Part shown: positions 1 to 34,926 of the stretch, one piece after another
How positions within the stretch are numbered: position 1 is the stretch's first letter
How the letters are laid out: each line of letters opens with the position of its first letter
Source of the DNA: a virus
Taxonomy: Duplodnaviria > Caudoviricetes
Virus record (IMG/VR): IMGVR_UViG_3300037467_000443
Coordinates: 1-34,926 of that record
DNA: 34,926 bases
Strand: one strand, 5' to 3'
The notes under the pieces: model-generated
Seen by the model: the letters and a program-made list of their open reading frames with translations, nothing else
What the model was told of the DNA's origin: nothing
Database searches by the model: none
Translations under genes and position numbers: made by a program

Positions 1-127
1 TGCATCCCAAAATGTCAGCGCTACGGGAGCCCGGAAATCCGAAGGCAAATCGTAAGCGTATTGACCAATCACCGTGCTGAACGTGTAAGTGCCCTGTAGG
101 GCCTGCCACGAATAATCACGGATAAGC
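1..127. repeat. Terminal direct repeat identical to 34800-34926 (circular assembly overlap)
   Basis: TGCATCCCAAAATG...CACGGATAAGC is identical at both ends. A gene reads in frame across the junction. Confidence 0.97.
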
Positions 128-261
128 TCTTTGCAGACTGCGGAAGCTGAACGCTTCAACAGAACGGCGTTGGCATCAGAGTTGCCAATGACGGTTTGTG
201 GAGCATCGTATAGAAGTTCTTCCGATGCCGCCTGACAGATGGAAAGCAGGGTCAAAGCCAT
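1..261 (-). CDS. Head-to-tail adaptor, 5' part (joins 34347-34799 across the origin; 237 aa total)
   Basis: ATG at 261 gives MALTLLSICQAASEELLYDAPQTVIGNSD...WQALQGTYTFSTVIGQYAYDLPSDF, in frame with ORF 34347..34871. It lies between the capsid cluster and the nozzle gene. Confidence 0.75.
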   Translation of the reverse strand, partial: MALTLLSICQAASEELLYDAPQTVIGNSDANAVLLKRSASAVCKELIRDYSWQALQGTYTFSTVIGQYAYDLPSDFRAPVALTFWDA

Positions 262-266
262 CTAGC

Positions 267-668
267 TTACTTCCCCGCTGGCTTCTTCGCTTTCGCTTCG
301 TCGGCAGTTGTTTCGAAGTTTGTCGCCATCTTGCGGGCAACTTCGGCTTCTACCTTGGCCTGCAACTCTAGTTCTCGGGTCGTTTCACGTGCCTTGAAAT
401 CCTTGTAGTCGGAAAAGGTATCAGGGAAACGTGCAGTCAGTTCGAACCAATCTTTTGAGGAAAGCTTTGATTCAACAGCCCATGTGTACGAAGAGTCACG
501 GCTTGGCGGTTCAGAAGCTTCAATCTTGTGTTCGATTGCCGGAAGCCATGTGCCATCCGCCATCTTCATTTCAATCATTCTGCCCGAGACAAAACGGTTA
601 TCTTTCGGGTCACGCTTATCCGTGGCCTGCTTCCAACCGGTCACCGGCCTAGTTTCATAATTGTGCAA
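267..668 (-). CDS. Hypothetical protein downstream of capsid genes
   Basis: 133 aa ORF with TTG start and GGAG RBS, in the late operon. Confidence 0.6.
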   Translation of the reverse strand: MHNYETRPVTGWKQATDKRDPKDNRFVSGRMIEMKMADGTWLPAIEHKIEASEPPSRDSSYTWAVESKLSSKDWFELTARFPDTFSDYKDFKARETTRELELQAKVEAEVARKMATNFETTADEAKAKKPAGK

Positions 669-697
669 ATTTAATTCTCCTATTGAATTTTACGTAT

Positions 698-732
698 AAA
701 AATGGGGCATCTGCGGTTAAACAGACGCCCCA
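698..732 (-). terminator. Rho-independent terminator after capsid/cement genes
   Basis: TGGGGCGTCTG/CAGATGCCCCA stem (one G-U on minus strand) followed by a T tract. Confidence 0.75.
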
Positions 733-766
733 CATTGCTAGTATTTAGGCTTTCTACAAAGTAGGC

Positions 767-1045
767 TTACTGAGTATCGTTGGCTGTCTTGAACACCCAA
801 CCATACTGGTTGGCAGGAATGCCAACCGTGCTGGTTGTGAAGTTGCCGTTGGCATTCGTAAGGGTGTTGAAGTTGCTGAACACTTTAACAACCGTAGTTG
901 CCGCAATGTCCGAACCACCACCATTCTTCACGTAATACCAGTTCCTAGCAGAGTCACCCTGAACTTTCGTTCCAAGGGTGAACTGCGAAGTGGCTGATGT
1001 TGCGGTAAGATCGATACCGATTTTTCCGTCTGTTACATATGGCAT
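767..1045 (-). CDS. Capsid cement/decoration protein
   Basis: 92 aa Thr/Gly-rich beta protein (LGTKVQG..WYYVK..NQYGW) directly after the major capsid gene, with a strong RBS. Confidence 0.65.
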   Translation of the reverse strand: MPYVTDGKIGIDLTATSATSQFTLGTKVQGDSARNWYYVKNGGGSDIAATTVVKVFSNFNTLTNANGNFTTSTVGIPANQYGWVFKTANDTQ

Positions 1046-2069: not shown

Positions 2070-3152
2070 TTAGTTCAATCCAAACTGATCAAGGGCATTC
2101 GCAATATGGTCGTCTAGAGACATTTTTCCCGGTTGGGTTTTGCTACTTGAACCGGATGCCGGTTTGCGGGTAGCTGCCCTACGGGTCTTGTCTGCCTCTG
2201 CTTCTTGCAATTTCTTCGCTAGTTCTCTTTCGGTGATTTTGGCAGCGTTTTGACCCACCGCCATCTTGTATGAAAGATCGAACATTTTCTTTTCGTCCTG
2301 AATGTTTTCGAATTCAGGCGTACTAGCGATGATCCTTGCCATATCCTGCTTCAATTCATCATCAAAGTGTGGATACAGAAGGTTCCCATCAGCATCCTTC
2401 ATACTTGCGGCATTGCCTACAAAGTCATGGATACCTTTGGTGCGTTCAGCTTCGGCTTGCCGTTGTACGGCTTGCTCAAAGACTGCATATTTCTTTTCCA
2501 TTTCAGACAGTTTGTCTTGAAACTTCGAAACGGTAGGATCAATCCAAGTTTCTTCTTTCTTGGGCTGTTCCGCCTGTTTCTGGTCAAATAGCTGTTCTGG
2601 CTTGAGACCGGCTTGCTGCATGACAAACTTAACGTGCCCTACAGGGTCAGAGAGAATACCAGCGTAGCCTTGTACCAGTTGCCCGATGAAGTCGGGTTCT
2701 GATAGGCCGGACTGGCTCACCATCGCTTTGTAGTTGCTAAGTGTGCCTTCTACAGCTTCCCAGTTTTTGCGCTGGTCAGCGTATTTTTCACCTTGCTTGG
2801 TCAAACCACGTTCGTAGTCTTTCGACTGTTCCAACCATGCCTTCTTTGCGGCTTCTGGTAGAGTGTCGAAAACTTCCTTACGTTCTTTTGGCCAATTGGA
2901 CGGAGCGCTTAGAGTATCTTCCTGTTCGGTCGACTCCGTGCTTTCCGTTTCGTCACTGGCTTCTAACTTGGTTTCCTCCGGTATATCCGTTTCTTCAACA
3001 GACTCCGTTGGGGTAGTTTCGATAGCTGCTTTTTTGCTAGGTTCTACAATGAACTTGTCAATTGCGTCATCAATGTAATTGTCCAAAGTAGGCTTTACAT
3101 CCTGACCAGCATTGCCCTGTGAGCCGCTTTCAGTCGTCGTGTCTAGTGTCAT
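2070..3152 (-). CDS. Capsid scaffolding protein
   Basis: Acidic N-terminus, APSNW motif and coiled coil, directly upstream of the capsid gene. Confidence 0.8.
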   Translation of the reverse strand: MTLDTTTESGSQGNAGQDVKPTLDNYIDDAIDKFIVEPSKKAAIETTPTESVEETDIPEETKLEASDETESTESTEQEDTLSAPSNWPKERKEVFDTLPEAAKKAWLEQSKDYERGLTKQGEKYADQRKNWEAVEGTLSNYKAMVSQSGLSEPDFIGQLVQGYAGILSDPVGHVKFVMQQAGLKPEQLFDQKQAEQPKKEETWIDPTVSKFQDKLSEMEKKYAVFEQAVQRQAEAERTKGIHDFVGNAASMKDADGNLLYPHFDDELKQDMARIIASTPEFENIQDEKKMFDLSYKMAVGQNAAKITERELAKKLQEAEADKTRRAATRKPASGSSSKTQPGKMSLDDHIANALDQFGLN

Positions 3153-3195
3153 ATCGTTCCTATTTATCTTTCTAAAAATTTCAGTGTTTCAAAAT

Positions 3196-3657: not shown

Positions 3658-3961
3658 GGTGATCTTCCCAACGAAGCCGCCTTAAATCAGCGCCTTTCCA
3701 CAAGTCGGATACCCGCTTCTTTTCCAGTTCCAACGTGTTGCCGAACGAGTCACCAACCTGAACAACATTGTGCTTTCGCTCATGGGCTTTCAGAGCCGCC
3801 CGAGACGAAATGATAGTGTTGTCAATTGGAGAGACGAATTCGGCTATGTCCGGCATGAAAGAAGGTGCTTCCGGAACCCATGACGAAGTGTCTTCATTAC
3901 AGAAGTTTCCATCGGCATCCACCATCCGGCCTAGCTTGGCATCATAGCGGTACTTGCTCAT
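3650..3961 (-). CDS. Small phage protein following the portal gene
   Basis: PDIAEFVSPIDNTIISSR...HERKHNVVQVG motif typical of post-portal genes; ATG overlaps the portal stop. Confidence 0.7.
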   Translation of the reverse strand: MSKYRYDAKLGRMVDADGNFCNEDTSSWVPEAPSFMPDIAEFVSPIDNTIISSRAALKAHERKHNVVQVGDSFGNTLELEKKRVSDLWKGADLRRLRWEDHHD

Positions 3962-6225
3962 TTAGAACCCCTTTGTGCCGCCACATAGTCTTGGAATGGA
4001 GCGGAGAAAGTTCCATCCGCTATCGCCCTGTCATATGCGGCTTTAAGTGGGTCTACGGCGTTCTCTGCTTGGTTCTGTTCAATCACCTTGGCCGTCTTCA
4101 ACTGAATTTCCAAACTCTTCAATTCAGCATCAGCCGCCTTGTTTGCACGGTCATCAGCCGATGAAGCGGCTTTCAATTGGAACTGTTGACGGTGCAATTC
4201 AACCTCTTGCTGCTTGATCGCCAGTTCGATGTTGGCCTTCTGAATCTCCATCTGCGAAATTTGCTGATGTTCCTGAACACGGATTTTTGCCAGTTCAAGT
4301 TCATGCTGCATCTTCAACTTTTCCAACTCCAACATCTGCGGGTCTGGCGCATTAGGTGATGGTGGTGGCGCTGGTGGCGTCTGAATCAACATGTCCATGG
4401 TGTGTTCAATGGTGTCTTCCATTGAACGGTCCACGTTGTATCCCTTGGTAAGGAACAGCATCAGTTCCTTGGCCAATGGACCGAAGATTTGCGGCGCTTG
4501 CTGAATGCCGGGAACCGCCGTCTGCATCTCTTGCGAAACCATCTGTGCGAATTCCATGCGGCGCTTTTTGTCAGCGTCCGTGTCTTCAAATGCGGTGATG
4601 TCGGTTTGCACGTTGATGGAATAGTTGCGGCGATCATCCGAACGGAGAATGCCGGACACGTCTTCCCATGTGACATCAGCGTTAGCCACTTGCTTCATCT
4701 GCTCGATCACTTCCGGTGGAGTGCCTTTCAGCGGGTCTTGCGGAAGCATCTGTGGCAGCGCTGCTTGGGCCTGTGCGGCCATAGCGGGGTTCTGTGCGGC
4801 TATCGCTTGCGCCTGTGGTGAGCTGGCCACGGCGGCAACCTGACTCTGTGCCTGTTGCGCCTGTGCGCCAGCGGCAAGCAGGGTACGGGCCTTGTCTCTC
4901 TGTTCAGCCGTTGGGAGCGGAATCCCGGTCATCACTTCAAGCTGTTCACGCTTGAAGTGTTCAGCGATGATTTCAGCCTTCATCCGCATTAGGTCACGGG
5001 TGAAGTCCTGAACTGCTTTCTGCTTAAGGCTGAAACGCTGAGTGCTGGCACGGGCTTTAATTTCCTGTGCCTCTGCGGTTGCGTATTCCTGCCCGTCACC
5101 GCCTCTCACAATGTCGGAAATGCCGGTAAGCTGGTAGATGTTCTGCAACAGCGTGTCGTGACGGGCCTGCAAGATCGGAATAGTTGCCGCAATCTGTGAC
5201 ACTGGAATTTGCATGAAGGCAGCGGACAAGCCTTTATCACCTACCGCACCATTGGTATTGATCGGCAAGAACTGCCCATCTTTCAAATTCCGAAGATTGG
5301 AAATTACATCAGCGTCTTGAATACCTTTGTCATACACACCGGCCCACTTCATTTGTTCCGTAAGTTCGGACATGCGGTATTCCAGATGGTCCAGTTCATT
5401 GGCCGCTTTCTGGTACATGATGAACTCTGGAACAGGTTCCAGAGAATCCGTAGTGGTCAAGCCATAGAGAACAGCGCAAGGGAAAAACCCTTGCTGATTG
5501 TAAGGATCATCATCGGAACCCAGAATTACCGGGCATCCTTCCGCCACATAGATTCTACGCTTTGAAGCCTTGTCCCAAACTTCCCATACAGGTGAACGCT
5601 TGGCGTCATCGTCTGGCATATCGGCATCTTTCGTGGCGTCCATATCCACAAAATTCAGCGATACTTGGTCTGCATAATCGGGGAACTGTGCTGCTACATC
5701 TTCTTTCGTGAAGAAGGTTCGTCTAGCTACCCAAGGAACATCAGACCAACGCTTTGCAGGACCATGGCGGAAGTCCATCCATCCGACATATACAGCCTTT
5801 ACCTCGTTCCTTTGGTCGGCAACTTCCAGTTCGATCCAGTTGACGCCACGGCCAACCAAAAGCATGTCCTGAACGGCTGCTTTGATGGAGTCGCTGAAAT
5901 CATACCCTTTCGAACATGACTTAAGCGCATTCTCCAATACAACCGCTGCGGTCTTTGAAATTTTTTCGTCCAGACCGGGCTTAGAAAATTCTCGCCTAAC
6001 ATCAGGGTTCCCAACCTTTGTGAACAGGTGGGATTGCATCGTGTCGGTATTTGACCAAAGGATGTTAAAATGGTTCGCCAAACTCTCTTCATGCGAAGTG
6101 TCGTCACGATACCTTGCAACAACCTGTTTAGCTCTTCCAAGAAACCGCTTATCTCGCTTCTTTGCGATGTCGAGTTGATTAAGCCAGTAATTGGACGGTG
6201 AACCCGCCTCTATATCTTTCTTCAA
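3958..6225 (-). CDS. Portal protein
   Basis: 755 aa after TerL. Motifs FNILWSN, W.DVPWVARR, VWEVWDK, GFFPC, IYQLTGISDIVRG and TAEAQEIK, plus a Q-rich C-terminal coiled coil. Confidence 0.92.
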   Translation of the reverse strand: MKKDIEAGSPSNYWLNQLDIAKKRDKRFLGRAKQVVARYRDDTSHEESLANHFNILWSNTDTMQSHLFTKVGNPDVRREFSKPGLDEKISKTAAVVLENALKSCSKGYDFSDSIKAAVQDMLLVGRGVNWIELEVADQRNEVKAVYVGWMDFRHGPAKRWSDVPWVARRTFFTKEDVAAQFPDYADQVSLNFVDMDATKDADMPDDDAKRSPVWEVWDKASKRRIYVAEGCPVILGSDDDPYNQQGFFPCAVLYGLTTTDSLEPVPEFIMYQKAANELDHLEYRMSELTEQMKWAGVYDKGIQDADVISNLRNLKDGQFLPINTNGAVGDKGLSAAFMQIPVSQIAATIPILQARHDTLLQNIYQLTGISDIVRGGDGQEYATAEAQEIKARASTQRFSLKQKAVQDFTRDLMRMKAEIIAEHFKREQLEVMTGIPLPTAEQRDKARTLLAAGAQAQQAQSQVAAVASSPQAQAIAAQNPAMAAQAQAALPQMLPQDPLKGTPPEVIEQMKQVANADVTWEDVSGILRSDDRRNYSINVQTDITAFEDTDADKKRRMEFAQMVSQEMQTAVPGIQQAPQIFGPLAKELMLFLTKGYNVDRSMEDTIEHTMDMLIQTPPAPPPSPNAPDPQMLELEKLKMQHELELAKIRVQEHQQISQMEIQKANIELAIKQQEVELHRQQFQLKAASSADDRANKAADAELKSLEIQLKTAKVIEQNQAENAVDPLKAAYDRAIADGTFSAPFQDYVAAQRGSK

Positions 6226-6243: not shown

Positions 6244-7743
6244 TTAGATTTTTTTGTAAAAACGTGCTTTTTCTTGATCCCGTTCAATCTCACGTGACCA
6301 AGAATCCAAAGTTGGTTGTCTAACCCGTGGTTCCCGTGGCTTAGGCGCTGGCGCTGTCCAAGGTCTGGACATGCAGGCGTAGCGAACGGCATCCATCAAA
6401 TGGTCTTCACCATCCGTCACCATGTCTTCCGGATTGTTCGAGTCGTGCTGTTGAATCGGGAAGGTTCTGATGGTGTGTTCGCACGTGTCGAAAAAGTAGA
6501 TCATCGGCACGTCATTGAACCCACGCAAACGCTGGCGAAGCTCCATCCATCCACCACGGGCACCATCTCGGGCAATTCGGGTGTTGTCGGCTCTGCGGAA
6601 CCGGATTCCCTGTTCAGCCATCATTTCGGCTTCGGAAGGTCCGGATTTATGGGCGAATGCGGAAGGGTCTAGAACACGGTCATCAATGCGGGAACTGCCT
6701 TCTAGCTTCCCGATCTCTATGGCCACTTCCTTTGGTGTAAGCCGCACACCAACATTGTACTGCCACTTACCCTCTTTCTTGGCCAAGCCGTAGTATTCAC
6801 GGTAACAGACCATCGCACCTTTGGGGATGAATGTTCCGTCTGGCGTGTCACAGTCTTCCGAACACACGGCAAACCACAGATAGGCGAATGGCGATGAAAA
6901 GCCGGTGTCGCCAGCTAGAACTTTCGTCCAGTGAGCCGGGATAGCGAATGGCCTAATAACATGGGTCTTTTCCGAGAATTCGGGGAAGAACGCACCAGCC
7001 ACAACATTCCAGTCACCAAAACGCATGGCATTGACAAGTTCGTCCGAACCAAGACCCAAGAGCGAGTCAGCGTAGTTCGGGCTTTCCTTCATCAGAGTCG
7101 GATTGTCTTCCAACTTGGCCGGAATGAACTGGCGTCTAAAACCACCCTCTACCGGGTCCATCTGGCGGATTTGGCCGGGGTCAACTCCATCAACGAAGCC
7201 GCCTTTCAACCATTGGTGACCGATGCCACCGGGGTTGGATGAAAGCAGGATGCGAGGGAAACGACCTTGGTATTTCGCTGGAATGTCCAAGCCAGACATA
7301 CGGACACGAGAGCGAAGAATTTTGTACATCTTTTCCGAGAACGATGAAGCTTCATCGATCATCAGAACGTGCATTTCAACGGACAGGTAATTGGCTAGGC
7401 TGGATTCAAGCTGTAGGTGCGACAGGAAGATTTTGGAACCATTCCAGAAGCGAACTTCGTGTTCCACAATATCTACCAGCTTCGCTTTCACCCACTTGTT
7501 CAGTAGGGCACGGAAACCGGCTGGACCTTCCATGTGTGATTTTTTTAATTCATCGAAAGTTCGGCGGAACAAATAAATGTTGATGCCGGGAATTTCTATG
7601 GCCCAAGAAATGGCCGCAACACGCATCAAATAGGATTTGCCACCACCAACCGCTCCACCGTAAAGAATCTCGGTTGCCGGGGAGTCGAATGCTTCTGCCT
7701 GCTTTTGGTGTAGAGAAAGGTTTAGGTCTAGGTCTTTATTCAA
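6244..7743 (-). CDS. terL: Terminase large subunit
   Basis: Walker A GGAVGGGKS, Walker B LMIDEA, SSNPGG, and nuclease motifs AGDTG and EDHLMDAVRY. Confidence 0.95.
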   Translation of the reverse strand: MNKDLDLNLSLHQKQAEAFDSPATEILYGGAVGGGKSYLMRVAAISWAIEIPGINIYLFRRTFDELKKSHMEGPAGFRALLNKWVKAKLVDIVEHEVRFWNGSKIFLSHLQLESSLANYLSVEMHVLMIDEASSFSEKMYKILRSRVRMSGLDIPAKYQGRFPRILLSSNPGGIGHQWLKGGFVDGVDPGQIRQMDPVEGGFRRQFIPAKLEDNPTLMKESPNYADSLLGLGSDELVNAMRFGDWNVVAGAFFPEFSEKTHVIRPFAIPAHWTKVLAGDTGFSSPFAYLWFAVCSEDCDTPDGTFIPKGAMVCYREYYGLAKKEGKWQYNVGVRLTPKEVAIEIGKLEGSSRIDDRVLDPSAFAHKSGPSEAEMMAEQGIRFRRADNTRIARDGARGGWMELRQRLRGFNDVPMIYFFDTCEHTIRTFPIQQHDSNNPEDMVTDGEDHLMDAVRYACMSRPWTAPAPKPREPRVRQPTLDSWSREIERDQEKARFYKKI

Positions 7744-7767
7744 ATTTCAAAAATGCCTGTAAAAGGT

Positions 7768-7944
7768 TCATCTCTCCCATTCGTCATTCATCAATGCGGC
7801 TAGGTAGTCTGAAACTGCTTCGTTATAAATTTTAGAGGAGTCGGGGAATGGAAGAGCCCGGAGTTTGTCCAGCCGCTCCATCACATCATCCGACTCTAAT
7901 TGTTCCAAAAGGTCCAAATAGCGTCTGGCAACTTCACCAGCCAT
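7768..7944 (-). CDS. Small acidic hypothetical protein (58 aa, MAGEVARRYLDLL...)
   Basis: Read by hand; ATG overlaps the TerS stop (TAATG) and fills the gap to TerL. Confidence 0.55.
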   Translation of the reverse strand: MAGEVARRYLDLLEQLESDDVMERLDKLRALPFPDSSKIYNEAVSDYLAALMNDEWER

Positions 7945-8345
7945 TATTCGTCCTTCTTCAATGTGATGTTCACCGTGGGGATTATGCCATTGCCGGTGAT
8001 TTCCGTTTTATCGTTGTAGCGGCCTGCCAGACGATAAAGCTTGTCCTGTGCGGCTACCTTGTCGGCAGACTTGACCACTTTCCCATCAGCTTCCGCCAAG
8101 GCGATCTTGTATGTTTCGGCAAAGATCAATGACATGTCGAATTCAGCGGCATCCCACTTTTCTTTCAACCAAGCTTCCGCCAGTGGTTCTTTCAGGATTT
8201 TGCAGGCTGCTACAGCGGCGGCTTTGGGATTGTCGGGAGAGTATCCAGCCCGCATGGCGGCTTGTGCGCCGTTCATGTCCTTGACGTATTCAGCCAAAAA
8301 TTTCTTTTTCTTGCGGGAAAGGGTTCTCTTTTTAGGTGCCGCCAT
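7944..8345 (-). CDS. terS: Terminase small subunit
   Basis: LSRKKKKFLAEYVKDMNGAQAAMRAGYS is a Terminase_2-type HTH; it lies upstream of TerL. Confidence 0.9.
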   Translation of the reverse strand: MAAPKKRTLSRKKKKFLAEYVKDMNGAQAAMRAGYSPDNPKAAAVAACKILKEPLAEAWLKEKWDAAEFDMSLIFAETYKIALAEADGKVVKSADKVAAQDKLYRLAGRYNDKTEITGNGIIPTVNITLKKDE

Positions 8346-8562
8346 TCTCTTTCTTTTTTCTCCAATATTCCTTTTTCAACTCGCTTTGGAGTGTGCAGAA
8401 TTCCTTTGTGCGCTTTCTGCCAGTTCGTGACGCTGACATTTTGGCTCTGGTTTCTTCGCTCTTCGGCCTTTTGCCCGCTTCACTCATGGCCGCACGGGCT
8501 TCCGGTGAAAGGTATCTTGTCTTGGTCGCCTTTTCGGCTTCCGGGTTAATTTCGCTATCCAT
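8332..8562 (-). CDS. Stand-alone NUMOD3-repeat DNA-binding protein
   Basis: SPEARAAMSEAGK and SEETRAKMSASRTGRKRT repeats. The probable start is ATG 8562, just downstream of a TAAATA box. Confidence 0.6.
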   Translation of the reverse strand: MDSEINPEAEKATKTRYLSPEARAAMSEAGKRPKSEETRAKMSASRTGRKRTKEFCTLQSELKKEYWRKKKENGGT

Positions 8563-8576
8563 TTGTGTCTCTTGCG

Positions 8577-8582
8577 TATTTA
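8577..8582 (-). promoter_or_regulatory. TAAATA box (T4 late-promoter-like) heading the packaging/head operon; further copies at 742, 3161, 15601, 16697, 25114, 25249, 29112, 32305 (minus) and TATAAATA 9942-9949 (plus)
   Basis: Recurrent motif in intergenic positions, oriented towards downstream genes. Confidence 0.65.
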
Positions 8583-9265: not shown

Positions 9266-9279
9266 CTAATGAATCTTTT

Positions 9280-10673: not shown

Positions 10674-10677
10674 TTTA

Positions 10678-26001: not shown

Positions 26002-26011
26002 GGAAATCCAC

Positions 26012-26125: not shown

Positions 26126-27849
26126 TGATCGTTGGCCGATTGACCGGCCAACATGGCGTTTATCAGTTCTTGCCTTGCTGAAAATCCCTTACCGGCATTT
26201 AGCAACTGGTTTCCAAGATATGCCTGACCAATTTTGGTCGTTGCCGCTCTTGGTGCCAGCGCCAGTAAGCCCAATGCAGCGGTAGCAGGATGTCCGGTCA
26301 GAAGAGCCGCACCACCGCCGCCACCTAGAGCCGCCATCAAGTCTGTAGCAGCGCCACGGGCACCAGCACGAACGGCAGTGCCCGAGTCCGGCAAGTCTCG
26401 CAAGGTGGCTTCCCCTGCCCTTGCCAAGTCGGCAAAATCACCCTGACCACGGACATAGTTCCGTGCACCTTGCACCTGTGTCGTGGCATTGCGCAAAGCC
26501 TGTGGTGAGATGAGACCCTTAGCGGTTTCAGCGCCAGAGCCGGCAACCGCCTTTTCCAATACCAGATAGTTTCTGTAGTCCTTACGTGCTGATTGCCACG
26601 CTCCCACGTCATCCGGGTTTACGGCGGCAATATTTCGTTCCATCGCATCATCCAACGATGACATGATGCCCTGCAAAGCGTCACGCTGTTCCCCTGATGC
26701 CTTGGAAGCCTTCGCAGACAATTCCGAACGAAGTTCTTTGTATGCATCACCGGTCATTATTTTTTTGCCGTTGATATCCTTGACCGTGTTTTTGATAATG
26801 GCCGCCTGCATGGAAGGTCCAGTGTCGTTCTGATAATTTTTTAGAACGTCTTGCAAATCGCTCTTCAATGACGGATCAACCGGCATGTCATATTTGCTCG
26901 CAAGATCGTTGAACTTTTGTCCGATGTTCGTAAGGGCTTGGTCCATCACTTCCGGAGTCGCACGATCTGCGGTCACGCCAATCTTTTGCAAAGCAGCCGA
27001 TGTGAATGACTCTTTGGTTGGTGTGTAGAATTCGGAACCGCCAAGCTCGCTTTCAAGCGCTTTCAAAAGCTTGTTGCCTGTCTTCTGACCAGCGGTAAGC
27101 GAAACGCCTGCATCAGCCAAAGCACCTGTCTGCGCCTTCAACGCATCCGATGCCGGAAGCGGTGTGATACCACGTTCGATAGCTCCCGGAATTTGGTGAC
27201 CAGCTATGGCACCAGCGAAGCGGGCATAGGGTTCTAGTGCCGTTCCCTCTGTGGCCTGTCCTGCCGCCTCACTGGTTACGGCAGGCGCTAGAACGTCCTT
27301 CGCCACGTCCTTACCAAGGGCCTTCAAGAGTATCTTGGCACCGGATTCACCGGCCTTCACCGCTCCCGCCGCTTCACCACCGAACAACGAAGGTAAAAAT
27401 TCGCCTACCGTTTCACTGTATTTTCCAGCGGTTGTTTGCGGCGTGTAAAATTTTCCCGTAACGTTGTCTTCAATCTTCCCCTGAATGTCGGAAGAAGTTG
27501 GCAGTTGTGCACCATCCGCACTAAGGGCACCTCTAGCGATGTTTCCAACCGTTCCGTTTGGGTCAAAACCCATGCTGGTTACAGCGTTGTTGATTGTTTC
27601 GTTTGAAGGTAGGTATGGCTTTACAAAGCTTTCCAAATCGCCGCCAAGGCCAGCAATACCAATAGTTCCCTTCGCTGCACCAACGCCAAGTGACTTAGCC
27701 ATATCACCGGCTGTTGACGACGGTTGAAAGTTTCTCACATCGTCAAGGCTCACACCCTCTGATGCAATGTACTGGTCTATGTCGGACTCTGGCGCATTCT
27801 GGTCCACCATCTTCCGAACATTGTTCTTTATTCTTAATAGATCGGCCAT
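26122..27849 (-). CDS. DNA ejection/internal virion protein
   Basis: 575 aa Ala/Gly-rich helical protein with LTAGQKTG and LPDSGTA.R motifs; last gene of the ejection cluster. Confidence 0.75.
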   Translation of the reverse strand: MADLLRIKNNVRKMVDQNAPESDIDQYIASEGVSLDDVRNFQPSSTAGDMAKSLGVGAAKGTIGIAGLGGDLESFVKPYLPSNETINNAVTSMGFDPNGTVGNIARGALSADGAQLPTSSDIQGKIEDNVTGKFYTPQTTAGKYSETVGEFLPSLFGGEAAGAVKAGESGAKILLKALGKDVAKDVLAPAVTSEAAGQATEGTALEPYARFAGAIAGHQIPGAIERGITPLPASDALKAQTGALADAGVSLTAGQKTGNKLLKALESELGGSEFYTPTKESFTSAALQKIGVTADRATPEVMDQALTNIGQKFNDLASKYDMPVDPSLKSDLQDVLKNYQNDTGPSMQAAIIKNTVKDINGKKIMTGDAYKELRSELSAKASKASGEQRDALQGIMSSLDDAMERNIAAVNPDDVGAWQSARKDYRNYLVLEKAVAGSGAETAKGLISPQALRNATTQVQGARNYVRGQGDFADLARAGEATLRDLPDSGTAVRAGARGAATDLMAALGGGGGAALLTGHPATAALGLLALAPRAATTKIGQAYLGNQLLNAGKGFSARQELINAMLAGQSANDH

Positions 27850-29084
27850 TAATCGAGTCCGTACTTGCTTTTAAGGTTTGTGTTTGGTGTAGCTGGTGGC
27901 GCTCCCGGCACAACTGGTGCCGGCGATGTAGGCGCTGGCGTTCCGGTAGAAGCGGCGTCTGCCGCTTGCTGTTCCTTGTAAGCCCGAAATTTGTTTTCAA
28001 CTTCATCCGCCGCCCCTTGGGCATTACCCAATGAATGGCGGATAGCATCCATGGTAACCTGTCTGAGTTTTTCTTTTTGTGCGATTGTTTTTGGATCATC
28101 GCCGGGCATAGGCATGTACACGGACCAGTACTTATCATACTCGTCTTTGTTGATGACAGCGCCCGAGTCTCTGCGAAGGATTACCGTATTGATCCACGCA
28201 TCGGCGGCTTGTTTCGCCTGTCTGTAGTCGTCTGATACCCCGTAGTTTCCGATAACAGGAATGCCGCCAACCGCATAGTACTTCGGATTCAGCAATTCGG
28301 TTTGTTTGGAGTTGATAGAGTCGTTTGAATACAAACCACGTTCGTAGAAACTGAGGTCTTTTGCCTGTCCTTCATTCAGCTTTTGGTTAGTTCCCTCGCC
28401 ACCAACATTAACTGTTGTTCCACCGGCCTTCCCGATCTTCGCAAAATCTTCAAGAGAACCGGCATAACCGTTCGCTTTCGCCTTCTGATAGTCGGAATTC
28501 AGTTGGTCATAATCGGAAGGTGTCTGAACTGTAATCTTCCATGTGCCGTCCGGCTGTTGTGTATAGAGATTGCCGCCGATGATTTTAGTTTCTGGCTTCG
28601 AACCATCATAGAGAAGTTGCGAGTTGTGGTTTACGTCAATCGCCTTGTCACCAATGATCCTGATATCAGGCTTAGCCGCCGCTGCCTTCGCCTCCCTATC
28701 TTTCTCGAATTGGCTCTTAAGCGCATTGAATGTGTCATCGTCGGCAGCAAGTGCACCGGCACGTTCAGGCGATACGTTGTTGTCAATCAGGAATTGTTTT
28801 CTAGCCTCCAATGCAGAAGCTCTATTTTGTGCAGCGGTTTGCGCCGCTTGGTCCTGTGCAGCCTGTTCCTTGGTCATAGCACGGGTAGCAAAGAAATTCT
28901 TCGCCATATCCTGCAAACCAGCGCCAATCCCGCCAGAATCCCTTTGAAGCGGAACAGCGCCAGCGGTGGAGAAACCACCGCCACCAGTAGCACCGGCTAC
29001 ACCGGGACTCTGTAGAACTTCAAACAATGTCTTGCGTGGGCTAGGAGCTTCAACACGGGTGTCATACATTGGGTATTGTGGCAA
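27849..29084 (-). CDS. DNA ejection/internal virion protein
   Basis: 411 aa; LRRDSGAVI...Y.PMPGDD...IAQK motif. Confidence 0.7.
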   Translation of the reverse strand: MPQYPMYDTRVEAPSPRKTLFEVLQSPGVAGATGGGGFSTAGAVPLQRDSGGIGAGLQDMAKNFFATRAMTKEQAAQDQAAQTAAQNRASALEARKQFLIDNNVSPERAGALAADDDTFNALKSQFEKDREAKAAAAKPDIRIIGDKAIDVNHNSQLLYDGSKPETKIIGGNLYTQQPDGTWKITVQTPSDYDQLNSDYQKAKANGYAGSLEDFAKIGKAGGTTVNVGGEGTNQKLNEGQAKDLSFYERGLYSNDSINSKQTELLNPKYYAVGGIPVIGNYGVSDDYRQAKQAADAWINTVILRRDSGAVINKDEYDKYWSVYMPMPGDDPKTIAQKEKLRQVTMDAIRHSLGNAQGAADEVENKFRAYKEQQAADAASTGTPAPTSPAPVVPGAPPATPNTNLKSKYGLD

Positions 29085-29114: not shown

Positions 29115-29333
29115 TTATGGTTTGAAGATTCCGGATAAAAACAGCTTGATCGAGTCCCAAAACGTGAACAAAGTGAGGAATCCGCCGATTGCAACTAACA
29201 ACACGTTCCGGATGTATTGACCTAGCCAGCCAAGCGCTTCCTGTTTGCGGATCATCTCCCGCATTATCTCGTAATCTTTACGTGGCAACTTTACGTCAAT
29301 GATTTCATCTTCTTTTGATGATGGTTCGGTCAT
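29115..29333 (-). CDS. Small membrane protein (holin-like)
   Basis: 72 aa with one C-terminal TM segment, next to the muralytic gene. Confidence 0.4.
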   Translation of the reverse strand: MTEPSSKEDEIIDVKLPRKDYEIMREMIRKQEALGWLGQYIRNVLLVAIGGFLTLFTFWDSIKLFLSGIFKP

Positions 29334-30595
29334 TATGAATTCCCCATTAGGGCCTTCAACAAAGCCGCATATTGTGTGTTCTTGCCGCCGCCCGGTGCCA
29401 TCGGATTGCCTTCTGATGCCAGAGGCGAAACCGGCATTGCCATGGTCTGTTCTGGTGGCTTTGGAAGCCCAACGGTATCCATCTGCGGAAATGCCTTTTC
29501 CAGCGCATTGGTGATGTTTCCAATTCGCTTGGCGTTCGCATCATGCTTGGCCTGTGCAATCTGTTCTGGTGTCTGTGTGGGCTGGCTAGGCGTAGCGCTA
29601 TTGTCGGCTACTGCTGTGCTGGTTCCGGAACCGGTAGCCGTACCATTGTAGAAGCCCTGTGCCAGCGCCAAACGTCTTGCCTGTTCAGCGTCACCATTGC
29701 CGTAGCGCTCATACTGGCGCATGGCCGCATTGGCTGAATCCAAGTCAGAGGCAGAGCGCAACGCATTGCCAGCCGTGCCTTCCGTGGTGTTCAGTTCGTG
29801 ACCAAGGTAGCCAACTTGGGCTTCAATGGAACTCGGGTCCAATCCGTTTGCCTGTGCGTATGCCCGCAAAGCGTCCTGTCTTGGTCCGTTCCACTGGTTT
29901 AGGCCAAATGAGCGTTCACCATTGTTGTTGGTAGCCAGCGGATTGAAGTTCGATTCCGCCTTCATGGAAGCCAAGATTGCTGCCTTGGCGTATGGGTTCC
30001 ATCCTTGCTGGTCGAGCAAAGCGGATATGCGGCTTGGCGCATCGGAACCCGTTCCTGTGGCCGTGGGAGCCGCTACAGAGGCGTTTGAGGCAACGGCGGT
30101 GCCGGACACCGGAGCGCTGTTGTTAATGCCCCATTGCTTCGCCCATTCAGGGGAAAGGCCATTGTCCAAATTGCCGGCCAAGGTTGGTCCGACTGTTTGC
30201 CCGGCTAGGTCAAAATGCATCAAATCCATTGGCTTCGCAGAACCGCCTTTCCCGAGCGGTCCCGAGAAGTAGCCGCCCCAACGAAGGTCTTTGTTCAATT
30301 CAGGATATGCCTGTGATTGAACGCTGCGAACGTGGTTTGCAAAATTTTGATAGACCGAAAAATTTTTGGAATCCTGATAATTCGGAATCGGATTTCCGTC
30401 TTTGTCGAATAGCTGAATGTCTACAGCGTTACCCTTGCCGTGCTGGCGGGGATCGCCTTCACGCTTACCCGATGTAACCATGACTCGGGAAATGTTGGGA
30501 TCATTGTAGGAAGCAGCGGCTAAACTCATGAGTTTAGCCAATTCCGGATTCACACCGTCAAGGCTGATGCCGTCTCTAAAACCAAATTGGGCCAT
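29333..30595 (-). CDS. Virion-associated peptidoglycan hydrolase: M15-type peptidase plus phage tail-type lysozyme
   Basis: TSGKR..QHGKGNAVD..LRWGG..D.MHFDL (M15) and AESNFNP..FGLNQW..R...AQ..Y..HEL (lysozyme). Confidence 0.8.
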   Translation of the reverse strand: MAQFGFRDGISLDGVNPELAKLMSLAAASYNDPNISRVMVTSGKREGDPRQHGKGNAVDIQLFDKDGNPIPNYQDSKNFSVYQNFANHVRSVQSQAYPELNKDLRWGGYFSGPLGKGGSAKPMDLMHFDLAGQTVGPTLAGNLDNGLSPEWAKQWGINNSAPVSGTAVASNASVAAPTATGTGSDAPSRISALLDQQGWNPYAKAAILASMKAESNFNPLATNNNGERSFGLNQWNGPRQDALRAYAQANGLDPSSIEAQVGYLGHELNTTEGTAGNALRSASDLDSANAAMRQYERYGNGDAEQARRLALAQGFYNGTATGSGTSTAVADNSATPSQPTQTPEQIAQAKHDANAKRIGNITNALEKAFPQMDTVGLPKPPEQTMAMPVSPLASEGNPMAPGGGKNTQYAALLKALMGNS

Positions 30596-30598
30596 GGC

Positions 30599-31756
30599 TT
30601 ACCCCGCATTTGGTCTAAAGAACATCAGCCCTTTTGACTTGGGCTGTTCATTATCGTTCGAACTATCCTTGGGTTTGTCGGAACTTTTCGGCTTCAAATC
30701 CTTGGTTCGTTCATTCAACGCCTGAATAGCTGCCATCATGTTGCCGTTGATGGAGTCACGATCAATCGTCACACCATCGCCACCAAACTGTTTGGCCCAA
30801 TCTTCGGCCATAGGTCCAGTGCGTCTTTCAGGAACATCCGAAAGAGCCTGAACCAAGTCCTTATAGCGGTAGTCCTTGATTGGGAGCTTATCCATCTTCG
30901 AAAGAACCTGTTCACCCGAGACGGCGTGAAAGTCTTCCTTGAAGTTCTTGGATGATTTCAGACCACCAAAGACGGAACCAACCGCACCCAACATACCGGC
31001 TGCACCAGAGTTGGAAGCATTGGACGCATTAACGGAAGCATTGTAGGCATTCCACACGTTACCAGCCACGTCCGTATTGGAAATGCTAGATGGAACCTGT
31101 GTGGCAAATCCCGGCTGTTGAACCGCTGGCGTTGCACCTTCCAATGAATTCAGTTCTTGGAATGGAAGTTCACGAAGTTGCAAGGCGTTCGATAGAAGGC
31201 GCTGATACTCGTTACCAGCGGCCAAATCGGCATCTTGTGAAAGACCGGTTAGGGTCTGGTCATGCGCTTGCTGGTAACGATTCATTTCCTTGTTCCAAAT
31301 GTCGGAACCTATCGGAATGCCACGGTTCGAAAGAGATGCAGCAAGCTTGTCTTGCGCATCATCGAACGATGGCTGCAAAAGCCCAAGCTGGCGACTGAAC
31401 ATCGTCTTGGAAATGGATGACGTGTCACCGATTGATGACGGGTCAAACGTTCCGGTTGGCAGATTGGCCAACTGCGCCTGTGTCTTGTCAGCTAGGTTGT
31501 TTGAAAGCCCTAGCTGCTTGTTTACGAAGTCCAGAACTTCCGGTGAGAAGTTTAGAGTCTGCCCGGTTGGAACTAATTCCTTTTGGCCCACGTTGCGAGG
31601 GTCATTAGGATCATAGTTCCAAGTTGTAGAACCAAAAGGCGAATAGAGATTCTGCGCATTTAGCTGCGCATTGGCTCTAGCAGTTGCAATGTTCTGTGTG
31701 GTCTGCGCATCACTTACTTTATAAGGGTCTGGTGGGGCTGGTGCTGATGAACCCAT
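30599..31756 (-). CDS. Ejection/pilot protein with C-terminal S74 auto-cleaving chaperone domain
   Basis: MGSSAPAPPDP start; SSKNFKED...YRYK...GPMAED...AAIQAL. Confidence 0.7.
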   Translation of the reverse strand: MGSSAPAPPDPYKVSDAQTTQNIATARANAQLNAQNLYSPFGSTTWNYDPNDPRNVGQKELVPTGQTLNFSPEVLDFVNKQLGLSNNLADKTQAQLANLPTGTFDPSSIGDTSSISKTMFSRQLGLLQPSFDDAQDKLAASLSNRGIPIGSDIWNKEMNRYQQAHDQTLTGLSQDADLAAGNEYQRLLSNALQLRELPFQELNSLEGATPAVQQPGFATQVPSSISNTDVAGNVWNAYNASVNASNASNSGAAGMLGAVGSVFGGLKSSKNFKEDFHAVSGEQVLSKMDKLPIKDYRYKDLVQALSDVPERRTGPMAEDWAKQFGGDGVTIDRDSINGNMMAAIQALNERTKDLKPKSSDKPKDSSNDNEQPKSKGLMFFRPNAG

Positions 31757-31785: not shown

Positions 31786-32286
31786 CTAATTCAAATTTCT
31801 ATTCAACACTGGACGGAACAAAAATTCGCCGGTATCCCCGTTGGCAATTCTGCCTCTGAGGGTCCAATAGTTGATACCTGAAATTTCGGACGCCTCCATT
31901 AGCGGCATCGTCCTTCCTTGGTATTCAACCATCAGCGTGTTTCTTTTGTTTCTCGCCTGTTCCTTCGCAGTTGCCCAACGGCAATTGTCGGGCTCATAAT
32001 TTCCATTACTATCTATTCTATCGATGGTTCCACCGGCTGGACGTGGCCCCATGTCTTGTTTGAAGTTCTCATAGCCATCTGGACCTAGCCAGCGCTCACA
32101 AACTGTAATTCCACGGGCACCGTACCATTTGTATGAAGGAAAGTTCTCGTTCGTGCATCTGCTAATGAGATTATTCCAGCGGAACTTTTCTATTCTTTTT
32201 TCACGGTTCTTAAGGTGCCATGCTCTTTGATATTCTGCGTTCAAAATTCTTATTACTCCTAAATGAATTTTCATCAAAGGGATCAA
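31786..32286 (-). CDS. HNH homing endonuclease
   Basis: YGARGITVCERW...DMGPRP...TIDRIDSNGNYEPDNCRWAT..EQ.RN. Confidence 0.9.
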   Translation of the reverse strand: MIPLMKIHLGVIRILNAEYQRAWHLKNREKRIEKFRWNNLISRCTNENFPSYKWYGARGITVCERWLGPDGYENFKQDMGPRPAGGTIDRIDSNGNYEPDNCRWATAKEQARNKRNTLMVEYQGRTMPLMEASEISGINYWTLRGRIANGDTGEFLFRPVLNRNLN

Positions 32287-32331
32287 TTATTTGACCCTTT
32301 AATGTATTTATCCATTTAGAGTTTTTACCGA

Positions 32332-32811
32332 TTATGCCGCCTTCTCTAACGCCTTCTTCGCTTTCTCAAACTCTCTTTCTAAAACTTTGCATTCCGTTCT
32401 AAGCATGGAGTACGTCAAGCAATCTTGGTTCAGCCCATACCGGTCACGCAAAGTGCCTTCTTTCACGAACCCATATTTTTCTATGATCTTGATAGAGCGG
32501 TGATTGTCCTGATGAACACCCACAACAAGCCGGTGGCAGTTGAAGTGTACAAAGGCCAGCCACATGGCAGTTCGAATTGACCGAAGCGTCAGACCGTGAC
32601 CGGGTAGAACCGCAATGCTCATTTCAATTTCGTTGTGGTTCAGCCATAGCTCTTTCCAGCCGGTGAACACACAAGCAGCAACAATCTTGCCATCCTGCTT
32701 TAAAGCGAACGACTCGTTGTAGCCTTCAAGGCGAAGTGGAAATTCCTGAAACTGAGAAAATAAAAATTTTTCAATTTCCCGCTTAGGCTCAAAAATAATT
32801 TCGGATGTCAA
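32332..32811 (-). CDS. GNAT acetyltransferase (virion-module type)
   Basis: N.RSIKIIEKYGFVKEGTLR motif; lies between the nozzle and ejection genes. Confidence 0.85.
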   Translation of the reverse strand: MTSEIIFEPKREIEKFLFSQFQEFPLRLEGYNESFALKQDGKIVAACVFTGWKELWLNHNEIEMSIAVLPGHGLTLRSIRTAMWLAFVHFNCHRLVVGVHQDNHRSIKIIEKYGFVKEGTLRDRYGLNQDCLTYSMLRTECKVLEREFEKAKKALEKAA

Positions 32812-32814
32812 TTT

Positions 32815-34338
32815 TTAGAACACCCCTGCCGGTACAGCCATGATCTGGCTGGACTCCCATCTGGCGTTGTCGGCAGTCGAGAACAGGCGAACCACGGGAG
32901 CTACCGCTACACCGTACTGTGTCAGCGGCTTCCACGTTCTCACGGTCTTAGGTGTGGAACTCCATGAAGAACTCCATGCAGAGCCCCATGGAGTGCTACC
33001 AGTGCCATTGATTACCGTGGCCACTGGTGCGCTGATTGGGGACTCGTTGAAGTCCGTATCAACCTGAAACTGACCCTGAACAGTGCCATCAGCGATGATA
33101 ACCGGCTTCATCATCGTGAACTTTTTGGACACGTTCGGGTTCACCGGGTAGCTGTAGCCTTGTCTGGCTGTCGCCACGATCTGTGCACCATTGTCCGTTC
33201 CGCCTTGGTGGAGATAGACGTTTAAGCCGTTGTACTGGCTAAAGTAGATGCTTGTTCCGGTACTGGCGAATTGGGCCGCTGGTAGACCGTCGTATGTGGT
33301 CCAAGCCTGTGAATTGGTATTGAACACGTATTGCTTGGTTTTGGCCGTTCCGGTGACGATGTTAAAATAGGCAATGCCGTTGTGATATGTTGCTGACCAA
33401 CCATCATTTGAACCAAAGTTCGCCCAATCGGCTTGCCATGAAGATGAAATTTTTCCCCATGGCCCGAGCGCAATAGGATCATTGGCAACACCCTGCCAAA
33501 CGAACGTCATCGGGATTGGTCCCGCTTGCGTCATGATGACAAGCAGACCACCGATTTTAAGGGTGCATGAATATGACGTGTTGATTGGCGGTGGAGCTAG
33601 GAACTTACCTATCACGTTGAAGTCTTCCGTAGGGTCACCGGCATAAACAATGACTTCGCCTGTATCCATAACGAACACATGCGCATCCGTTGGACCATCA
33701 CCACCGAACCCGGCAACGGACCATGAGCCGATACCAACGCATTTGCCGCCAGATGAAACTTGCGACAAATCCCATTCAAACATCGGTCCAGTGATAGCGT
33801 TGCGATCACCAAAATAAACTTTGGCTGAGTTGTTCACAGTAAACCAAATGCGGTTCTGTACCAGCGCAACCTTGCTAAGGTTCGTGACGGTCAAACCGGG
33901 ATAGGTGAACCCTGCCGCATTGAATGTGGTTCCATTCCATTTCCATGGCGTATCAACGCCATTCGCACCGATGATGAACCCTTCATAGTTTACGGTACTC
34001 CAACGGTTCTTAGTGATAGTCGTGGTGGAAATCTGGGTTGCGGTGTTCGACGTAACGTCAAGAACCCGATTGTTCGCCGCCGCCAGTAGGCTTCTACCGG
34101 TTGGCGTATTGTAGACGAATAACGCTTCCGTTGCGTGGCCAGTAGACGTGTGAAGCTGGTAGCCGGGTCTTACCTTGCATGTTCCGCCGTCCGGTAAAAA
34201 ATTCTGCAAAACCGTGGCTTCGTCCGCACGACGAACATTGTGGGAATCTCTCGTATTCAGCCCTTGGAAGGGAGCCGGAACAGAGAACATCTGTCCGGTT
34301 CCCTGAATTGATTCTTGCGGAATTTTTCTGTTGGCCAA
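32815..34338 (-). CDS. Tail nozzle/DNA stabilisation protein
   Basis: 507 aa beta-propeller-like protein (VPAPFQGLNTRD, GEVIVYAG.P) after the adaptor. Confidence 0.8.
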   Translation of the reverse strand: MANRKIPQESIQGTGQMFSVPAPFQGLNTRDSHNVRRADEATVLQNFLPDGGTCKVRPGYQLHTSTGHATEALFVYNTPTGRSLLAAANNRVLDVTSNTATQISTTTITKNRWSTVNYEGFIIGANGVDTPWKWNGTTFNAAGFTYPGLTVTNLSKVALVQNRIWFTVNNSAKVYFGDRNAITGPMFEWDLSQVSSGGKCVGIGSWSVAGFGGDGPTDAHVFVMDTGEVIVYAGDPTEDFNVIGKFLAPPPINTSYSCTLKIGGLLVIMTQAGPIPMTFVWQGVANDPIALGPWGKISSSWQADWANFGSNDGWSATYHNGIAYFNIVTGTAKTKQYVFNTNSQAWTTYDGLPAAQFASTGTSIYFSQYNGLNVYLHQGGTDNGAQIVATARQGYSYPVNPNVSKKFTMMKPVIIADGTVQGQFQVDTDFNESPISAPVATVINGTGSTPWGSAWSSSWSSTPKTVRTWKPLTQYGVAVAPVVRLFSTADNARWESSQIMAVPAGVF

Positions 34339-34346
34339 TGCTTCTG

Positions 34347-34926
34347 TTATTCCCTAATTCCAAGTGGCCCCGGAATTGTGCAGGACGCATCGGAAAACAA
34401 TGAAGGTTTGTATCTGGATGAAAAATCAATCATCGGCTTTGGACGGTCCACACCCTGTAGGGCATCGATAGCGGCCAAATAGTCTGCCTTGTATTCAGCG
34501 CTTGGTTCCCCGAGACGGTATGCCAAGCGGTACTTCACGCCACGGATAACCAAATCGCCGTCCAGACGGCAAACATCAGAATCTAGTGTGAAGTCATCTT
34601 TTGGGGAACCATCAGCCGCCGTAGCAAATGCATTGCTGAGATAGCTGAACGAAATGGTTGTTACCGAAGTGGGGATTGGGAACAGCTTTAGTTGGTTCCC
34701 CTCCACCACAAAACGATATTGGATACCGCCGATGCTGTACCCTGATTGAAGGGTTTGCCAGTCAATGGAACTGACAACATCCATGGGGATATGTGACCCT
34801 GCATCCCAAAATGTCAGCGCTACGGGAGCCCGGAAATCCGAAGGCAAATCGTAAGCGTATTGACCAATCACCGTGCTGAACGTGTAAGTGCCCTGTAGGG
34901 CCTGCCACGAATAATCACGGATAAGC
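34347..34926 (-). CDS. Head-to-tail adaptor, 3' part (continues from 261 across the origin)
   Basis: YDLPSDF, LKLFPIP and FTLDSD motifs; in frame with 1-261. Confidence 0.75.
   Translation of the reverse strand, partial: LIRDYSWQALQGTYTFSTVIGQYAYDLPSDFRAPVALTFWDAGSHIPMDVVSSIDWQTLQSGYSIGGIQYRFVVEGNQLKLFPIPTSVTTISFSYLSNAFATAADGSPKDDFTLDSDVCRLDGDLVIRGVKYRLAYRLGEPSAEYKADYLAAIDALQGVDRPKPMIDFSSRYKPSLFSDASCTIPGPLGIRE
34800..34926. repeat. Terminal direct repeat identical to 1-127
   Basis: Exact 127 bp match. Confidence 0.97.

Follow-up and report, generated by a model that had tools for sequence, protein, structure and literature searches.

The 34,926-nt stretch of DNA analyzed here (hereafter the window), which is the whole of IMG/VR virus record IMGVR_UViG_3300037467_000443 (Duplodnaviria; Caudoviricetes), probably represents a satellite virus (probability roughly 0.6). 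It has genes for a complete virion and a serine integrase, but its operons would be transcribed through gp55, the late sigma factor of a T4-superfamily phage infecting the same cell; the host is likely an alphaproteobacterium of the rhizobia type. Boxes without a -35 element stand before its virion operons, before an operon of small open reading frames (ORFs) and, in relatives, before a replication gene, and no reader for them is recognizable. Taken separately, the wiring of the element to a helper sigma factor is quite probable, strict dependence on the helper for replication is evenly balanced, and silence as a prophage without any repressor is slightly doubtful. Dependence is better argued for transcription than for replication because the relatives carry an initiator or a helicase-like gene.

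All ten copies of TAAATA in the window lie in non-coding DNA, which makes up 9.6% of the genome, and are oriented toward the gene that follows on their own strand. When the non-coding segments were shuffled, they held a mean of 4.2 copies, and 1 of 300 shuffles reached 10; for [AC]TAAATA and [AC]TA[AC]ATA, the non-coding counts were 9 against 2.0 and 12 against 2.7, respectively (0/300 shuffles for each). Coding DNA holds no TAAATA, where 3.5 copies would be expected in sense and 3.3 in antisense orientation. These placement counts use hand-chosen gene starts, partly taken from homologues; a cruder automatic test found a box in 5 of 34 upstream windows against 1.45 expected (3/200 shuffles). 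A preliminary description, made from the sequence, had the boxes head late units. Their orientation agrees with this, but they precede the divergent small-ORF operon as well, and exact TATAAATA occurs at one window site only.

Scans of viral and metagenome contigs, in which four contig names share one sample number, recovered a clade of relatives: G001 (35,973 bp, terminal repeats, CheckV completeness 100%), G006 (34,762 bp, both ends inside the portal gene) and the fragments G002, G003, G007 and L001. G006 and G001 are syntenic with the window and share 47% and 58% head-protein identity with it, respectively. Nine of the ten window box sites have a counterpart in G006 and eight in G001; the recurrent places are the packaging operon, the scaffold gene, the post-head gene, the HNH gene after GNAT, the ejection gene, the tail cluster, the resolvase and the divergent operon. 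The relatives also have a box upstream of the portal gene, where the window has none. Across 45 clade sites from four records, related sites among them not being independent, the base before TAAATA is A or C in 43. No -35 element was enriched in the 45 sites in three registers (p 0.80-0.93), and TTG occupies the -35 position in 1-3 of them. The clade thus shows two features of a T4-type late promoter, a conserved, oriented (T/A/C)TAAATA word and no -35 element.

In T4 itself, the late promoter is TATAAATA at -13 to -6, and in Aeh1, it is CTAAATA (PMC1524935). T4 late promoters lack a -35 element, their basal transcription is repressed by gp33 and their activation requires DNA-mounted gp45 (PMC2988020). 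In the rhizobiophage phiM12, compared over its first 50 kb (48% G+C content, GC, there), [AC]TAAATA precedes gp3, gp23, gp22, gp19, gp18 and gp16 and does not precede gp21, gp20, gp17, gp15, gp13, uvsY, gp55, gp45 or gp43; for gp43, gp45 and gp55, the preceding 110 nt are free of it. The Brucella phage Tbilisi served as a control: it belongs to the same capsid family, its GC is likewise 48%, it encodes a primase-polymerase, and not one of its 16 TAAATA copies stands before a virion gene. The phages ppBjS10J-1 and BUCT555 have 3 and 0 copies, respectively, none heading virion genes, and the distant capsid relatives L002-L006, L024, L025, L030, L047, L048 and L051 were set aside as having no oriented box pattern.

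G006 carries a 107-aa ORF that scores above the gp33 (PF16805) cut-off (29.8-30.9 bits versus 25) and also matches phrog_254. It lies behind a TACATA variant, directly before the packaging operon. The predicted protein has an N-terminal Cys/His-rich extension and may be a decoy because the hydrophobic end of phiM12 gp33 is absent; it had no homologue except itself (2 candidates) and no match among PDB sequences. The phage phiM9 has no gp33 (PMC4621102), and helpers therefore vary. With the conservation and orientation of the boxes, the word shared with phiM12 late genes and the absence of a -35 element, the gp33-like gene lends good support to the earlier view of the boxes as gp55-type promoters.

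Other genes point to large phages. The G001 helicase-like protein matched 173 cultured records, of which the 30 listed are all 156-490 kb, and its top hit among the matches listed is the Agrobacterium jumbo phage Atu_ph07. The window nuclease at 9984 matched 65 cultured records (the 40 listed all 164-183 kb), and that at 25540 matched 60 (of 25 rows sampled across the ranking, 23 are 158-175 kb). Judging by their names, these large phages are of T4 type or jumbo phages.

Several observations weigh against this reading. The whole-genome TAAATA count in the window is at chance (10 versus 9.63 expected), so that the signal is one of placement and conservation only, and with automatic ORF calls, its rank among hexamers is 44th, 37th and 5th in three genomes, unimpressive in two of them. 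Most alphaproteobacterial sigma70 promoters lack the T at -7 (PMC8407463), and TAAATA could therefore pass as a host -10 element. The relatives were drawn from few samples. The window has no gp33, the gp33 call in G006 consists of hidden Markov model matches and one weak cyanophage match (E 0.07), and a single-sequence structure model of that protein is poor (predicted local distance difference test, pLDDT, 52.7), with no Foldseek match. Identities to T4-type phages are only 24-46%, which indicates a shared gene pool and not recent transfer. About ten small window ORFs have no assigned function, a search of 185,579 species genomes turned up no prophage of the clade, and no helper-satellite pair was identified. 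The replication slot of G006 holds a lambda-O-like initiator with 45-bp repeats, and that of G001 holds a 560-aa superfamily 2 (SF2) helicase-like ORF (phrog_2467, weak DEAD match); G001 also has Rz-like spanins, besides peptidoglycan-binding domains on its hydrolase. Of the two features by which the preliminary description would have known relatives, the boxes recur, but the missing modules are therefore not a clade trait. Since the slot lies behind a box in all three genomes, what is shared is promoter wiring and not the exact absences.

An autonomous temperate phage would account for several of these points. Its boxes would be host -10 elements, read by sigma70 with CarD or by an alternative sigma factor; an unrecognized silencer or activator, for example the conserved ORF beside the integrase (ORF 19113) or a nuclease with a helix-turn-helix (HTH) domain, would control it; and host proteins with an unrecognized small initiator would replicate it. 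The -10 elements without a -7 T, the initiator in G006, the spanins and peptidoglycan-binding domains in G001 and the presence of ORF 19113 in all three genomes are consistent with such a phage, which we nevertheless consider unlikely: the 45 sites have no -35 signal, their invariant word is the phiM12 late word, it is not evident what purpose capture of a gp33-like gene would serve if there were no gp55, and Tbilisi, an autonomous capsid relative, lacks the pattern.

Family scans (Pfam and PHROGs) covered the 45 called ORFs of the window, and none of these matched a polymerase, primase, helicase, initiator, sigma, antiterminator or CI-type family. The same replication, sigma, antiterminator and CI-type families were not found in 144 six-frame stop-to-stop ORFs of at least 38 aa from the four non-structural regions, so the hidden factors that the preliminary description had feared among the small ORFs did not appear at this level. 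A PF16805 search returned no gp33 in the window, and phiM12 gp55, gp45, gp44, gp43 and gp41 used as queries had no match there. Neither G001 nor G006 had a polymerase or primase match in family scans, and none of the three clade genomes has gp55, gp45 or a replisome. At the level of family matches, then, the window lacks the key replication genes, as a satellite virus does, and has neither the CI/Cro-type immunity switch nor the replication module of an ordinary temperate phage. The earlier claim that replication and repressor genes are missing stands for family matches in the window but does not extend to the relatives, with their initiator and helicase-like gene, and a hidden silencer is possible; ORF 19113 and the HTH-bearing nuclease genes could be such regulators.

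The slot that holds the initiator in G006 and the helicase-like gene in G001 is filled in the window by a segment between 16-nt inverted repeats (8796-8811 and 9847-9862), whose GIY-YIG ORF had no homologue except itself in our searches. The clade might accordingly be helper-wired for transcription and self-initiating in replication, and in the window, a member that is defective or hitch-hikes, this orphan GIY-YIG cassette would have taken the place of the initiator. The spanins and second holin-like gene of the relatives are also missing here; against such decay, every virion gene is intact, one run yielded an assembly of the free attP form at depth 30, and a run from a second study contains identical pieces. 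We hold this account to be quite unlikely.

The window encodes five homing-endonuclease-like ORFs by family scans (four nuclease-like and one NUMOD3), three of the five directly behind boxes. The element could on that account be mainly an anti-phage prophage: boxes fired by the helper would turn on nickases directed against the helper's DNA, and making virions would be a secondary role or be driven otherwise. PICI-like elements (PLEs) offer an analogy: they reportedly cut their helper with the nicking nuclease NixI and also use a domesticated endonuclease. Most boxes, however, head virion operons, the nuclease activity is predicted only, and the Acb2/Tad1-like genes described below would shield an infection and not abort it; we hold this explanation to be very improbable.

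The integrase and attP-like site named in the preliminary description are both in place, the former a large serine recombinase and the latter a repeat with intact arms whose letters are identical in G006. No integration joint was seen at attP in the public sequencing runs X1 and X2. The possible host-type integrase promoter was missed by a strict consensus scan.

ORF 19113, next to the integrase, belongs to a family of 455 representatives in which CxxC and HxxRxH are invariant. Its structure model consists of a long helix and a small domain (pLDDT 88; predicted template modeling score, pTM, 0.43), and it had no match in Pfam, PDB sequences or Foldseek. It may resemble H-NS. The protein is a candidate silencer, helper sensor or excision factor. 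Used alone as a query on viral contigs, it returned five loci: the three clade members and two proviruses, G011 and G012. These are related to each other (CheckV 42-44%) and carry a tyrosine integrase and an unrelated long-tailed (siphoviral) virion module; their boxes are strand-biased (13:1 and 0:11) and lie upstream of most virion genes. Because they were found without using the box, they are a real if small test, amounting to one independent lineage, and they show that box-wired elements also occur integrated. A reversed-pattern control on their boxes was uninformative, as ATAAATA is identical when read backward. In G011, a 365-aa ORF with a transcription-regulator-like domain lies behind a box (L079:7892-8989) and a DNA methyltransferase behind ATACATA (L079:3756-4652). 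In fragment G007, a SegE-type GIY-YIG endonuclease (PF19835) lies behind a box (L043:10764-11132).

More broadly, and tentatively, unrelated small temperate phages (podo- and siphoviral, with serine or tyrosine integrases) may have converged on wiring the whole genome to a T4-superfamily late sigma factor. In such virophage-like elements, gp55 would replace the CI switch as the induction signal, the ORF 19113 family would serve as a marker and gp33 would have been captured to redirect late transcription.

The 45-ORF scans identified both terminase subunits (TerS and TerL), portal, major head protein, adaptor, tail fibers, ejection proteins, tail lysozyme and GNAT; the window thus encodes its own virion proteins, as satellite viruses do, with a full head and tail set, as first described. 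By tblastn, its head protein groups with those of Mx8, BUCT555, ppBjS10J-1 and Brucella phages (each of the 55 records <60%). The gene at 32815-34338, labeled 'amidase' by PHROG, matches in position the structural genes of ppBjS10J-1, Tbilisi and BUCT555, which share the same order. The supposed lack of lysis genes is not secure because the peptidoglycan hydrolase at 29333-30595 adjoins a small membrane-protein-like ORF, and there is the 'amidase' label besides. The relatives' counterparts of the hydrolase have weak M15-peptidase matches at their N termini.

The window ends are an exact 127-nt repeat (1-127 identical to 34800-34926) that the SU10-adaptor gene spans, and the gene reads as a single ORF across the joined ends. 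The unit is therefore a 34,799-bp circle, as had been proposed. The IMG/VR entry lists its ends under direct terminal repeats. CheckV estimates 61% completeness, which likely reflects the want of a close reference. A tRNA search found no tRNA genes in the window. Positions 7000-26500 lie within a single 34,821-bp contig of X1, a public soil run and possibly the source, and X2, which comes from the rhizosphere and belongs to another study, has 31 matching pieces, 21 of them alike at the 99% level or above. There was no RNA run among the listed public runs that match window DNA.

Integrase relatives were found at three loci, in Kaistia, Mesorhizobium and a Desulfobulbaceae metagenome-assembled genome; two of the three being in Kaistia and Mesorhizobium, a Hyphomicrobiales host is suggested. 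The integrase-relative loci L055 and L056 were rejected as clade lysogens, with no virion-gene match at either, and none of 177 ejection-protein pattern matches in species genomes was a relative. GC is 49% in the window, 48% in phiM12 1-50,000 and 57-62% around the integrase relatives. Against a T4-like locus, X1 and X2 gave short matching pieces only (40 and 30). One 45,301-bp X1 contig of depth 31.8 (window depth 30.2) matches 94 nt of gp23; we do not count it as support because T4-like phages are common, several such contigs exist and X1 may be the source. The longest records of X1 and X2, at 191,102 and 191,104 bases, come close to phiM12 (194,701) in length and are absent from the listed pieces matching the T4-like locus.

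Under the favored reading, the particle would infect alone and the integrase, expressed from a host-type promoter, would establish a prophage. The boxes would be poorly read by host sigma70, so that little repression would be needed, and ORF 19113 may silence the element or trigger excision. On helper infection, gp55-RNA polymerase would fire all boxes. The excised circle would be copied by the helper clamp, polymerase and helicase, which would also provide DNA-loaded gp45 to activate the late promoters. Initiation would fall to an exchangeable gene: the O-like initiator (G006), the SF2-helicase-like protein (G001) or possibly nicking or recombination through the GIY-YIG ORF (window). The element would then package itself and exit when the helper lyses the cell, a step to which its hydrolase and candidate holin might contribute.

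Table 1. Features of the window (., no strand assigned).
Feature	Position	Strand	Basis or remark
Terminal repeat (assembly overlap)	1-127	.	Identical to 34800-34926
SU10-type head-tail adaptor	34347-34926, continuing from 1-261 over junction	-	PF24175, phrog_6013, read-through
CTAAATA box	742-748	-	Counterparts in G001, G006, L001
Small virion structural protein	767-1045	-	phrog_26298
Major head protein, Mx8/Brucella-phage family	1067-2026	-	phrog_9953, tblastn
Likely scaffold protein	2070-3152	-	Position; no family match
ATAAATA box, 9 nt before scaffold start	3161-3167	-	Context GAAAGATAAATAG kept in G001, G006, L001
Portal	3958-6225	-	phrog_12082
Terminase large subunit	6244-7743	-	Family scans
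Terminase small subunit	7944-8345	-	Family scans
NUMOD3 ORF, first of packaging operon	8332-8562	-	Family scan; counterpart in G006
ATAAATA box heading packaging operon	8577-8583	-	Counterparts in G001, G006
ATACATA variant box	8654-8660	-	G006: TACATA before gp33-like gene at equivalent place
ATACATA variant box facing replication slot	8779-8785	+	G006: TACATA before initiator gene
Segment between 16-nt inverted repeats	8796-9862	.	Repeat search
GIY-YIG nuclease ORF	9280-9819	+	PF01541
Exact TATAAATA box heading small-ORF operon	9942-9949	+	Counterpart in G006
HNH-like/NUMOD3 nuclease	9984-10673	+	phrog_16521
Operon of small non-conserved ORFs	10678-13887	+	Family scans, six-frame search
Second tail-fiber/virion module	13916-15549	-	Family scan; 82-87% identical in G006
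CTAAATA box	15601-15607	-	Counterpart in G006
Small serine resolvase/invertase	15754-16398	-	PF00239
CTAAATA (16697) and ATACATA (16643) boxes, integrase-resolvase interval	16643-16703	-	Counterparts in G001, G006
Large serine recombinase (integrase)	17067-18926	-	Family scans
Possible host-type integrase promoter, TTGTGC-N16-CATATG	18947-18974	-	Inferred; similar in G006, G001
attP-like inverted repeat, both arms intact	18981-19032	.	25-nt arms, 2-nt center
Coiled-coil and CxxC..HxxRxH protein beside integrase (ORF 19113)	19113-19481	-	Conserved
Tail-fiber cluster: collagen-repeat fiber, DUF4376 protein, two more	19583-25065	-	Family scans
CTAAATA box heading tail-fiber cluster	25114-25120	-	Counterparts in G001, G006
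GTAAATA, sole copy without A/C at -1 and without counterpart	25249-25254	-	Box alignment
HNH-like, NUMOD3 and HTH protein	25540-26001	+	Family scans
DNA-ejection proteins	26122-29075	-	phrog_26400
ATAAATA box overlapping stop codon	29112-29118	-	Counterparts in G001, G006
72-aa membrane-protein-like ORF, holin candidate	29115-29333	-	Comes after spanins in G001
Peptidoglycan hydrolase, tail-lysozyme domain	29333-30595	-	PF18013
Virion protein with Peptidase_S74	30599-31756	-	Family scans
HNH endonuclease	31786-32286	-	PHROG scan
ATAAATA box	32305-32311	-	Counterparts in G001, G006
GNAT acetyltransferase	32332-32811	-	Family scans
Likely tail structural protein	32815-34338	-	Position; PHROG label 'amidase'

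Some further features of the window accompany these. About 10 nt after the box at 742-748 comes a GC-rich hairpin with a T-run (box and hairpin both within 700-748), kept in G001, G006 and L001, which could be a short RNA, a 5' stabilizer or a replication primer. The same 17-nt word, which includes ATACAT, is found at 8644-8660 and, on the other strand, at 9913-9929, upstream of the two divergent operons, and may be an operator or a duplicated promoter. The non-coding stretch of about 300 nt at 25190-25420, with a perfect 12-nt inverted repeat (25309/25347), holds the unconserved box; G001 and G003 carry other ORFs in its place. The resolvase adjoins the second tail-fiber module, where G006 has a different resolvase (30%); tail switching and dimer resolution are both possible.

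In the small-ORF operon, ORF 11660-12334 gave an Acb2/Tad1-like hairpin match of 24.9 bits, below the 27-bit cut-off. The G006 protein is above the cut-off, and a G001 ORF in this operon resembles the family by eye and matches only unnamed PHROGs; the Acb2/Tad1-like loci outside the window are L042:11090-11434 and L016:4089-4328. ORF 10678 had no Atlas match of at least 0.9. Two small ORFs of the operon are paralogous (74% over 68 nt, 12848-12915 against 13520-13587). A tail-gene stretch (24911-24964) has a 54-nt inverted match of 85% at 12073-12126, seemingly copied into ORF 11660, and one X2 contig joins 11923 to 15381 on opposite strands.

If the proposed reading is true, a prophage would be induced by another phage's sigma factor instead of by DNA damage, and a helper-triggered expression switch for rhizobia would be at hand. 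Many 25-36-kb phage genomes regarded as 'incomplete' would in truth be whole parasites that live on T4-like phages, and sequence searches with the box together with the ORF 19113 family would bring such parasites to light. The phage phiM12 with Sinorhizobium meliloti is a cultured system in which the key claim is testable.

The clade resembles T4-superfamily late transcription in its -10-only [A/C/T]TAAATA before virion genes and in the gp33-like gene of G006; unlike in that superfamily, its boxes also head non-virion genes. The Mx8/Perisivirus-type podophages (Myxococcus Mx8, Brucella Tbilisi, Bradyrhizobium ppBjS10J-1 and BUCT555) resemble the window in the order of their virion genes and in the family of the major head protein (23-37% identity), but Tbilisi and BUCT555 encode an endolysin as well as a polymerase or primase-polymerase, and ppBjS10J-1 has a divergent HTH pair. 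P4, phage-inducible chromosomal islands (PICIs), their capsid-forming kind (cf-PICIs) and PLEs are integrative and switched on by a helper (PMC10690885), as is proposed for the window; PLEs, in addition, answer a lytic phage and use its replication machinery, depending on that of ICP1. These elements lack either capsid or tail genes of their own and take capsids or tails from the helper, whereas the window element encodes both. The preliminary description had called it the reverse of P4, PICIs and PLEs; its own capsid and tail agree with this, but the arrangement has a precedent in the satellites below, and PLEs too depend on helper replication. Tab (PMC10884400) was rejected as an analogue, being constitutively expressed, as were EPIPs (PMC12822802), which induce their helper and have no tails.

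Closest are the capsid-encoding, replication-deficient Streptomyces satellite viruses MulchRoom and MiniFlayer (PMC10690885) and Ando, a 13-kb Streptomyces satellite described as without tails (PMC13587820). Like the window, they encode capsid and packaging genes and lack key replication genes; their GC matches that of the helper and not the host, and MulchRoom and Ando carry an integrase, with HTH and Lsr2-like genes. The word 'promoter' has 0 occurrences in the main texts of the two papers. No satellite that uses gp55 promoters was described in any paper that we found in the literature within reach, subscription journals and bioRxiv supplements lying outside it. The three satellites have actinobacterial hosts and non-T4 helpers, MulchRoom has a tyrosine integrase, and their helper dependence is proven, whereas that of the window is inferred. 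By analogy, the window element would be of the satellite-virus kind, working like MulchRoom or a virophage and not like P4, a PICI or a PLE. It differs from the Streptomyces satellites in its 35-kb size, full podovirus tail, serine integrase and T4-type boxes; since capsid-encoding satellites were already known, what appears to be new here is the proposed wiring to T4-type late promoters.

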